Source of the DNA: an uncultured Candidatus Saccharibacteria bacterium
GTDB lineage: Bacteria > Patescibacteriota > Minisyncoccia > Minisyncoccales > 2-12-FULL-40-12
DNA length: 53,003 bases
NCBI GenBank assembly: GCA_964518135.1
Contig: CAZFEY010000002.1
Location: forward strand, 1-53,003
Direction of reading: 5' to 3'
The notes under the pieces are model-generated. The model was not told the origin of the DNA. It was given only the letters and a program-made list of their open reading frames with translations, and ran no database searches. A program made the position numbers and the translations under genes. Every line of letters begins with the position of its first letter. Position 1 is the stretch's first letter. Of this stretch, positions 32,488 through 33,088 are shown in pieces.

Positions 32488-32925
32488 TTAGAAAGGAATA
32501 TCTTCTATATTAATCTCTTCTTCTTTTTCCTCTTCTATGACTGGTATATCTTCGACGGCAACATCATCTTTTTTACTCCCCGGTATTATTTTGCCCGCAG
32601 CTCTTGGTCCAAGCTGCATACTTTGTCCGACAATTTCAGTTCTATATTTCTTATTACCACTTGCGTCCTGCCAGGTCCTTGTATTAAGACTTCCCTCTAT
32701 CAATGCCAATGACCCTTTGGTTAAGAACTGCGACGCAATCTCGGCCAATTTTCTCCACAAGACTATATTGTGGTACTCGGCCGCTTGTTGTTTTTGGCCG
32801 TTTTTATCTGTCCAAACCCTATTAGTCGCCAATCTGAAGCTACAAACAGTTTGACCGCCGGGGGTTGATCGAACTTCAGGATCGGAAACCAACCGACCGA
32901 CAAGAATTACTTTATTTAAATTCAC
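32488..32925 (-). CDS. ssb: Single-stranded DNA-binding protein
   Basis: 145 aa. '[19 protein letters not shown]' OB-fold N-terminus, acidic tail ending 'DIPF'. GTG start at 32925. Confidence 0.93.
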
Positions 32926-33052
32926 CCCATTAGAAGTTTGTTGTTATAGAATATATTATCCATTTCCAACAAACATTTATTTTGTTATTATTCCCCGTTT
33001 AACGGTTTGCACAATTTTTGTTAAAAAATTATACTCAGAACTTCTAACGGGG
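32925..33052 (-). repeat. Inverted-repeat leader module, copy 2 (rpsF-ssb spacer)
   Basis: In mRNA sense: 5' arm CCCCGTTAGAAGTT (33052-33039), 100-nt interior, 3' arm AACTTCTAATGGGG (32938-32925). This gives a 14-bp stem with one G.U. The last G is nt 1 of the ssb GTG. TGAA lies on both flanks. Confidence 0.85.
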
Positions 33053-33088
33053 TTCATCTCAATTTGTTGTTTTTTATTGGATGACCTT

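Follow-up and report, generated by a model that had tools for sequence, protein, structure and literature searches.

A family of probable miniature transposons positioned on start codons in Patescibacteria

How does the same inverted-repeat module come to stand directly against the start codons of two unrelated genes, and how are these genes expressed from behind it? The question is raised by a 53,003-nucleotide stretch of DNA from an uncultured Candidatus Saccharibacteria bacterium (contig CAZFEY010000002.1), called the window throughout, in which copies of 128 and 132 bp abut ssb and groES. [quoted passage not shown] We consider it very likely that a MITE inserted into the ssb start codon and recreated a GTG there, and the observations as a whole are probably best explained by a family of non-autonomous DNA transposons of this type that is widespread in Patescibacteria (the candidate phyla radiation, CPR).

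The copies at ssb and groES

Read on the minus strand from 33060 to 32915, the ssb locus runs gagATGAA, CCCCGTTAGAAGTT, 100 nt of interior, AACTTCTAATGGGG and then TGAATTTAAATAAAG, as had been proposed. The arms pair over 14 bp with a single G.T pair, which arises because the 3' arm has a T where most copies have C, and TGAA lies on both sides. The terminal G at 32925 is the first base of the GTG that opens the 145-aa SSB open reading frame (ORF), and the final G of the second copy, at 48734, likewise proved to be the first base of the groES start. The features of the ssb locus are as follows.

32925..33052, minus strand: MITE-like element, ssb copy, 128 bp, with termini CCCCGTTAGAAGT...ACTTCTAAYGGGG; absent from the orthologous site in loci L131 and L132
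33039..33052, minus strand: 5' terminal inverted repeat CCCCGTTAGAAGTT
32925..32938, minus strand: 3' terminal inverted repeat AACTTCTAATGGGG; its final G is base 1 of the ssb GTG
33053..33056, minus strand: left target-site duplication, TGAA, made up of the old ATG's TG and of AA
32921..32924, minus strand: right target-site duplication, TGAA, now bases 2-5 of the ssb ORF
33055..33057, minus strand: ancestral ssb ATG, stranded upstream of the element; element-free orthologues start ATGAATTTAAAT / ATGAATCTTAAT
32977..33057, minus strand: 26-codon leftover upstream ORF (uORF) MNPVRSSEYNFLTKIVQTVKRGIITK, from the old ATG into the element; a by-product, not conserved
32993..32999, minus strand: internal AACGGGG, a copy of the element's 3' end, able to pair with the 5' arm
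33011..33032, minus strand: A/T-run hairpin AATTTTTT-aac-AAAAATT; an equivalent hairpin with compensatory changes appears in the subfamily alignment
32488..32925, minus strand: ssb, now with a GTG start (PF00436 and homologues)
33089..33535, minus strand: rpsF ORF of 148 aa, upstream of ssb; the public gene call is shorter, 143 aa

The element lies in the intercistronic spacer between rpsF and ssb, which measures 163 nt between the called genes as against 24-36 nt in relatives, and the leftover uORF is its sole ORF. At up to one mismatch the arm 14-mer occurs in the window at the four arm positions only, and a profile search of the window finds two copies of the family, those at ssb and groES.

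Comparison with orthologous rpsF-ssb and groES loci, which the original prediction had called for, revealed empty sites at both genes. Deletion of the module and one TGAA had been predicted to yield an ATG start reading MNLNKV, and exactly this empty site, ATGAATTTAAATAAAG, is present in the closest relatives. In L131, whose SSB is 87% identical and whose synteny is the same (PGM-rpsF-ssb-recA-ftsK), the rpsF stop codon is followed by 24 nt and then by ATGAATTTAAATAAAGTT (MNLNKVILIG); the start context, ...aaatataATGAATTTAAATAAAGTT (MNLNKVILIG), contains no element. The start is also free in L132 (SSB 85% identical), where ATGAATCTTAATAAAGCA stands behind a 36-nt spacer, and in L133 and L134 (81%), where it reads ATGAATCTGAATAAAGTG; in both L132 and L133, ssb begins at ATGAAT. 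The rpsF-ssb spacers of L133 and L134, ahead of the empty ssb start, carry an unrelated palindrome, ACCCCCACACC...GGTGTGGGGGT (~75 nt; L133:1388-1500 and L134:456-568), which may be another small mobile or terminator-like element. The window's SSB itself was found on 15 contigs from several assemblies, and the element is present in all 10 of the contigs fetched, which represent the window's own population.

The ssb copy integrated at A/TGAA of the ancestral start ATGAATTTAAAT (a slash marks the element junction here and below), with the duplication leaving ATGAA upstream. The element's terminal G and the duplicated TG form an in-frame GTG, so that the SSB sequence is unchanged, and since the MNLNKV N terminus is conserved in SSB orthologues, this GTG must be the start. 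Among the long ORFs of the window ssb is the only one with a GTG start; groES, which falls under the length cut-off, also begins with a GTG made by its element. The features of the groES locus are these.

48603..48734, plus strand: second family copy, 132 bp, at groES; an older insertion, common to L136, L137 and L139
48658..48665, plus strand: internal TAACGGGG of the groES copy
48734..49024, plus strand: groES, 96 aa, with a GTG start provided by the element's final G
48476..48537, plus strand: groES promoter TTGACA-17-TAATAT and CIRCE-like operator (controlling inverted repeat of chaperone expression) TTGGCACTC-N9-GATTGCCAA, upstream of the element

Because the promoter (48476-48504) and the CIRCE-like operator (48511-48537, between promoter and element) both precede it, the element lies inside the groES 5' untranslated region; the same promoter and operator arrangement is found without the element in L135 and L141. 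The interval between operator and element is ~65 nt in the window and only ~18 nt in the occupied lineage L136. The flanks are as had been described, TGAA on the right and cgaag on the left. The groES site is empty in L135 (94% identical, from the same sample as L131) and in L141 and L142 (89%), where the start reads ATGAAAATTAAACC, again in exact agreement with the predicted ATGAA, and it is occupied in L136, L137 and L139 (91-92%). These three lineages carry the element with the window's degenerate left flank, aaaaaac(a)cgaag, so that the insertion at groES is an older event that they have in common with the window, and the ATG stranded by it has decayed. Between lineages 119 of 130 positions of the groES copy are identical (91.5%), as against 12 of 31 four-fold sites in groES (39%), and the upstream DNA is unalignable. 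On this comparison the groES copy appears to be under sequence constraint, with synonymous sites saturated, which is consistent with later co-option.

Both window copies fold into a closed multi-branch structure that is much more stable than those of shuffled sequences (z = -6.2 for ssb and -5.2 for groES). The three interior features that the two copies had been said to share, namely an A/T-run hairpin, AACGGGG ~55 nt in and a second hairpin, are real and are conserved with covariation in the dominant subfamily of the elements described next.

A dispersed family and its target sites

A scan of one genome per species with the pattern CCCCRTTAGAAG-N90-120-CTTCTAAYGGGG matched at least 120 stretches, and the matches listed (120 loci) together with the window gave a census of 129 copies, whose totals are lower bounds. 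The first 12 nt of the arm were set by the pattern (one R/Y position allowed), so the identity of the arm starts across the 129 copies is by construction. Among the matches listed, the hosts are almost all metagenome-assembled genomes (MAGs) of Patescibacteria from many class-level lineages, with several loci from one MAG. Some of the copies come from contigs assigned to Syntrophobacter, delta- or Gammaproteobacteria and Elusimicrobiota MAGs (L007, L027, L042 and L111, also L021, L036, L052 and L064), the first four of these loci forming a subfamily of their own with a GC-rich interior; perhaps the host range is wider, or CPR contigs were binned wrongly.

Copies caught by the two-arm pattern are 114-141 bp long, with a terminal helix of 13-22 bp (mean 15.6 bp) and terminal inverted repeats (TIRs) that begin CCCCGTTAGAAGT, the family arm sequence being CCCCGTTAGAAG. 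The dominant subfamily has the anatomy of the window copies, with the A/T-run hairpin, (T)AACGGGG ~55 nt in and 3' hairpins, and its alignment shows compensatory changes in 17 of 30 predicted base pairs; other subfamilies have only the termini in common with it. In one copy, L045:1325-1454, the termini recur in miniature as the first internal hairpin (CCCCGTTAGAAATT-tta-TTTCTAACGGGG). There are also shorter forms, of 45-102 bp, and nested ones, of 208-282 bp. Short arm pairs (45-102 nt) are present at L010:6014-6091, L113:807-887 and L055:7907-7951 and in L150, L167 and L170 (80 nt), and 80-nt versions are found at the ssb start; the short forms would fit internal deletions, or an internal TAACGGGG that serves as an alternative end.

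When flanking 4-mers and distances to start codons were tabulated, as the original prediction had proposed, exact direct repeats were found to flank 99 of the 129 copies (4 bp in 93, 5 bp in 6), whereas ~13 are expected with shuffled flank partners. The target duplication is 4 bp long (range 3-5 bp) and has the consensus T-N-N-A; 107 of 128 have T as the first base and 96 of 128 have A as the fourth. At least 18 different 4-mers are duplicated, including TGAA, TATG/CATA, TTGA/TCAA, TTTA/TAAA, TATA and TGGA. The predicted MITE-like element that donates a G at ATGAA starts is supported by each check that the original prediction had put forward; TGAA, however, is only the commonest of several target 4-mers. 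Up to three copies occur per 8-kb locus, and in L072 one element is inserted in another. This locus is from a Nealsonbacteria MAG; its ssb-start element (2256-2521, minus strand) holds a second, 130-bp element nested 18 nt in, and rpsR directly downstream has its own copy (1668-1797, ATGG/.../TGGAGTGC), two adjacent genes of one operon being affected. Short (under ~300 bp) and encoding no transposase, with TIRs, variable duplications of constant length, dispersed copies and presence/absence polymorphism, the element matches a bacterial MITE in all defining respects but that of a known autonomous partner.

The positions of the copies, each oriented by its adjacent gene, are highly restricted. 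Sixty-eight of the 129 stand exactly against the start codon of an ORF (60 aa or longer), and they do so in two main registers only: in 42 copies the terminal G and a following TG make GTG (A/TGAA-type targets), and in 24 the junction reads GGGG-T-ATG (/TATG targets). When ORFs of 80 aa or more are considered, the element ends at -1 from the start in 37 cases and at +1 in 21, never at 0, and at a distance of 2-5 nt in 1 case and of 6-10 nt in 3. By inspection of the table, the base in front of each of the 32 TGAA/TTCA duplications makes up a start codon with it, ATG in 30 cases, GTG in 1 and TTG in 1. A crude null is given by these 4-mers elsewhere in the non-coding DNA of the loci, where ~7% (TGAA) and ~20% (TATG) fall on start codons. 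Twelve further, less perfect copies from a profile search have the same start-codon bias. The genes hit, named from N-terminal sequences and in seven cases confirmed by Pfam, are diverse and mostly essential; they include ssb, groES and the genes for L11, L24, L2, L4, L5, L10, S6, S12 and S18, and further those for IF-1, NusA, NusG, TopA, ParB, MreB, MetK, SecF and RNase J.

Two other classes of site were recognized, and about a third of the copies lie outside start-codon, -35 and prepilin sites. In about 11 cases the element adjoins the first base of a TTGACx hexamer, behind which a good -10 box comes at 16-17 nt (L030:984, L031:164, L050:3836, L058:934, L067:6702, L070:1364, L082:5378, L083:3870, L090:2254, L109:6907 and L110:4605). 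Their duplication is TTGA, and the -35 box is thereby kept; they belong to subfamilies without the internal TAACGGGG. Four copies (L012:543-672, L012:1247-1376, L044:6018-6148 and L087:5223-5352) lie exactly at the Gly/Phe cleavage site of type IV prepilin genes. Here the 3' arm is read in frame (CTT CTA ACG GGG / TTT ACT, giving LLTG/FT), the interior encodes a new Met and a Lys-rich leader, for example MKNKELKNKKNRLLTG/FTIIEL, and the prepilin N-methylation motif crosses the element junction. In L044, deletion of the element and one TTTA restores an intact older prepilin, and the displaced leader MNKNNNAG is still intact upstream. In all site classes, then, the element end and the duplication regenerate the interrupted signal, be it a G/TG or GGGG-T-ATG start, a TTGA/TTGACA -35 box or the GGG/TTT of a prepilin Gly/Phe site.

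The ssb start has been a recurrent target. A metagenome search for the 3' arm fused to GTG-AAY-YTN-AAY-AAR found it occupied on 38 contigs with widely different SSBs, and the 18 contigs that have a single full-size element and a near-complete SSB comprise 14 SSB lineages at 90% identity, a minimum for the lineages hit at this site. The left flank is ...ATGAA in 26 of the 27 contigs with an identifiable 5' arm, often directly behind the rpsF stop codon. In L072, whose SSB is 65% identical to that of the window, the ssb copy is 92% identical to the rpsR copy of the same locus and at most 82% identical to same-site copies elsewhere; the window ssb copy shares 81% identity with an L073 copy that lies at a different gene, and at most 76% with same-site copies. 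These identities clearly point to at least two independent hits on the ssb start, the L072 and the window insertions.

The window also contains a second, unrelated palindromic repeat family, at 41436-41501 and 47374-47459, with arms ACCCGGTAGTGAATTTTGGAC / GTCCAAAATCTACTACCGGGT and interiors that differ in length.

Expression behind the element and the origin of the pattern

Orientation with respect to the gene is fixed within subfamilies. The dominant cluster, of which 35 of 40 members are at start codons, yields 369 same-orientation and 2 opposite pairs, and a second cluster 10 and 0; an initial indication that both orientations occur was an artefact of aligning unrelated subfamilies. Of the start-codon copies with the internal TAACGGGG on one strand only, 30 carry it in mRNA sense and 1 in the opposite sense (p = 3e-8), and the motif is rare elsewhere (1 of 11 promoter-abutting copies and 5 of 50 other copies). 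Since the termini are symmetric, the fixed orientation, the sense-strand motif and the conservation of the groES copy point to selection on the transcribed element.

Several more specific signals did not hold up. The single pair of the ssb stem that is G.U on the sense strand and would be A.C on the antisense strand does not generalise as a strand signal: stem mismatches in gene sense comprise 19 G.U and 14 A.C pairs, a difference that is not significant; the sense RNA has the lower minimum free energy in 43 of 68 copies (p = 0.06). The predicted uORF from the old ATG exists, but coupling through it is rejected as a conserved device: element length modulo 3 is uniform, uORFs range from 3 to 43 codons, and 16 of 66 copies no longer have the old start. 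An internal outward promoter is rejected as well, as no consistent site is found in either window copy; on the sense strand the ssb copy has none and the groES copy only a weak 9/12 site, and the conserved TATATAA is without the -10 consensus T and without a -35 partner. The sole sense-strand promoter-like site for the ssb copy is upstream of rpsF (33594-33566). Searched against Rfam 15, the window gives only 2 tRNAs at the gathering threshold, and over the element only chance-level hits at E up to 10. By inspection, ~4 of 41 long window ORFs have a Shine-Dalgarno (SD)-like motif and ~37 do not. At several window ORFs TATAAT or TAAAAT stands only 6-7 nt 5' of the ATG (e.g. starts 1144 on the minus strand, 12959 and 33665), a proximity that suggests leaderless transcripts.

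A mechanism can be outlined as follows. A transposase provided in trans and cutting with a 4-nt stagger would carry out the integration; to judge by the CCC ends and by the 4-bp, TTAA-like duplication it may be of the IS1380/piggyBac type, although no such enzyme was found. The ssb element would then be transcribed within an rpsF-ssb-rpsR mRNA from the host promoter upstream of rpsF, and the groES element from the host promoter upstream of CIRCE. The transcribed element is predicted to fold on itself into a closing helix and three hairpins, and such a self-contained fold would leave the coding start about as accessible as at an empty site; the predicted unpaired probability from the start to +11 is 0.59 with the element and 0.62 for the reconstructed empty site. 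As the lineage is mostly without SD sequences, initiation would take place at the GUG at the foot of the helix. We advance this account of expression tentatively, and rate its chance of being correct as stated at a little under even.

As to why the copies lie where they do, we read the pattern as the outcome of a loose target preference combined with strong selection at the level of expression; some active preference of the transposase for signal-regenerating sites may contribute. A number of points weigh against this reading and against the MITE origin with it. A GC-capped helix of 14-16 bp ending on the start codon would be strongly inhibitory in model bacteria. Tolerance alone leaves the near-absence of 2-10 nt offsets unexplained, though T-N-N-A sites should be common there. 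Neither equilibrium accessibility (0.59 as against 0.56 for the flipped element) nor terminator-like features (1 in the element, 1 when flipped) account for the fixed orientation, and promoter scans of the window copies do not explain it either. A search of ~0.9 Mb of flanking loci gave no autonomous partner, no transposase and no arm pairs 300-4500 bp apart; viral contigs gave no partner, transposase or family copies; and the two-arm search pattern itself favours intact copies. Tolerance alone, then, does not explain the exact positions and the fixed orientation, and the leading additional ideas are helix-foot cleavage to near-leaderless mRNAs, a kinetic decoy role of the internal TAACGGGG and asymmetric target choice by the transposase.

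Active homing to start codons is the first alternative to be weighed. A transposase or cofactor that recognises start-region DNA and inserts in a defined orientation would produce the pattern by targeting, not selection, and this would accommodate the fixed orientation, the repeated independent hits at the identical ssb nucleotide, the A, G or T that forms a start codon before all 32 TGAA/TTCA duplications, and a start-codon enrichment of 5-15 fold over the same 4-mers elsewhere in non-coding DNA. Against it, A/TGAA, /TATG, -35 boxes and prepilin Gly/Phe share no sequence beyond T-N-N-A with a TG step, and the property that they do share is the function regenerated, which points to selection. 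With about a third of the copies elsewhere, and no DNA transposase known to us that senses start codons, we regard homing as unlikely, though as an explanation to be taken seriously. It is similarly doubtful, but conceivable, that the family serves as a portable 5' end for genes, homing to or kept only at the first base of a functional signal and supplying the missing part, which would be G for GTG, GGG for the prepilin Gly and the Met-Lys-rich leader in the pilin subfamily. The fold and the orientation may in that case reflect helix-foot processing or helix-guided, SD-independent initiation.

A processing, or 'punctuation', model holds that the terminal helix is cleaved by RNase III or another structure-specific nuclease, so that the mRNA starts within 1-2 nt of GUG or AUG and is translated as a leaderless message; an insertion would be viable only if it set the start codon precisely at the foot of the helix. 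This would account for registers exact to the nucleotide (-1 and +1) and for a helix so strictly conserved (mean 15.6 bp), and the largely SD-less lineage, with TATAAT 6-7 nt before the ATG of several genes, is a suitable setting. Excision of tRNAs beside start codons generates leaderless mitochondrial mRNAs, and thus provides a parallel. RNase III is also known to cleave the TIR hairpins of Correia elements in Neisseria mRNAs (PMC10969869, PMC2649163). Yet the two registers are 2 nt apart and a single cut cannot leave both exactly leaderless, in model bacteria a leaderless message starts poorly at GUG, Rfam gives no match, whether tRNA-like or other, and the fixed interior orientation is not obviously required. 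On balance we consider the model rather improbable.

The other option of the original prediction, a non-mobile cis-regulatory RNA leader of ssb and groES (thermosensor- or riboswitch-like), gains something from the stable fold conserved with covariation, from the start codon at the helix base, and from the status of groES as a heat-shock gene whose copy is constrained (91.5% as against 39% at four-fold sites). It is rejected as an origin by the target duplications, the nested copies and the empty sites in the nearest ssb and groES orthologues. Dozens of unrelated genes moreover have the element, which also stands upstream of promoters and within pilin genes, and it belongs to no Rfam family. 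As an origin such a leader is thus very improbable; co-option of individual old copies is possible. Least credible of all is removal at the RNA level or translational bypass, in which the element and one TGAA would be spliced out or hopped over to restore ATG-AAT (junction ATGAATTT): matched flanks and stem-loop geometry superficially recall T4 gene 60-type bypass, but 128 nt is too small for a group I or II intron, no ribozyme family matches, bypass needs a nascent peptide and none exists at codon 2, and, with the upstream ATG decayed at groES and lost in 16 of 66 copies, nothing would be restored.

Relation to known elements and significance

In Neisseria, the TIR hairpins of Correia elements (CREE/NEMIS) act in mRNA through RNase III cleavage, and expression of the adjacent gene is influenced (PMC2649163, PMC10969869). 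Like the present family, these are short (~100-150 bp) non-coding MITEs with long TIRs and a conserved core, often at gene 5' ends and co-transcribed. Correia elements duplicate TA, whereas the duplication here is a 4-bp T-N-N-A, and neither a TA duplication nor the Correia TIR sequence is found in this family; the TIRs are unrelated and the host phylum is another. Correia ends create promoters, in contrast to the lack of any consistent promoter here, and there is no report of a Correia element exactly on a start codon or donating a base to one. Rickettsia palindromic elements (RPE) are also palindromic MITE-like repeats that lie in essential genes without inactivating them, and the pilin copies here are likewise translated (PMC10969869). 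RPE, however, are in frame inside ORFs and add an internal peptide, while the present family is mostly untranslated and at the first codon, and in pilin genes replaces the leader peptide including its start codon. The difference from Correia elements and RPE is above all that this family sits on and repairs start codons.

Variants of piggyBac with TAAA, TCAA and TATG duplications have been described, and IS1380 is a prokaryotic relative (PMC10813416). The CCCC ends and 4-bp T-N-N-A duplication agree with the CC(C) termini and 4-5 bp AT-rich, TTAA-like duplications of that group, a resemblance in ends and duplication; TTAA itself is absent among the duplications in the census. Two other classes of repeat were considered and rejected: integron attC sites, in which the order of core sites is opposite and whose targets do not match the housekeeping genes hit here, and repetitive extragenic palindromic (REP) sequences with their REP-associated tyrosine transposases (RAYT), since REPs are without duplications. 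In phage T4 genes 38 and 25, split ribosome-binding sites are bridged by a hairpin, and initiation still works with a stable hairpin between leader and start looped out. Those hairpins are short and immobile and set SD spacing, whereas in the present family an SD is usually lacking and what would be looped out is a transposon of 130 nt. The literature yielded nothing relevant on the arm sequence, on CPR MITEs or on start-codon-targeting transposons, and a 2024 review of prokaryotic MITEs leaves start or initiation codons unmentioned.

The family offers a clear case in which a transposon terminus and its target duplication together regenerate the interrupted signal. Gene callers will mis-start such genes or call spurious uORFs. 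The near-identical termini across class-level lineages imply a transposase that is probably widespread, and horizontal spread among CPR. MITEs are usually regarded as intergenic passengers; this family occupies the first nucleotide of essential genes, in reduced genomes that can least afford disruption. CPR translation initiation must tolerate or exploit a stable helix ending on the start codon, and, if the element does function at the RNA level, a selfish element would now be part of the translation-initiation region of many essential CPR genes.

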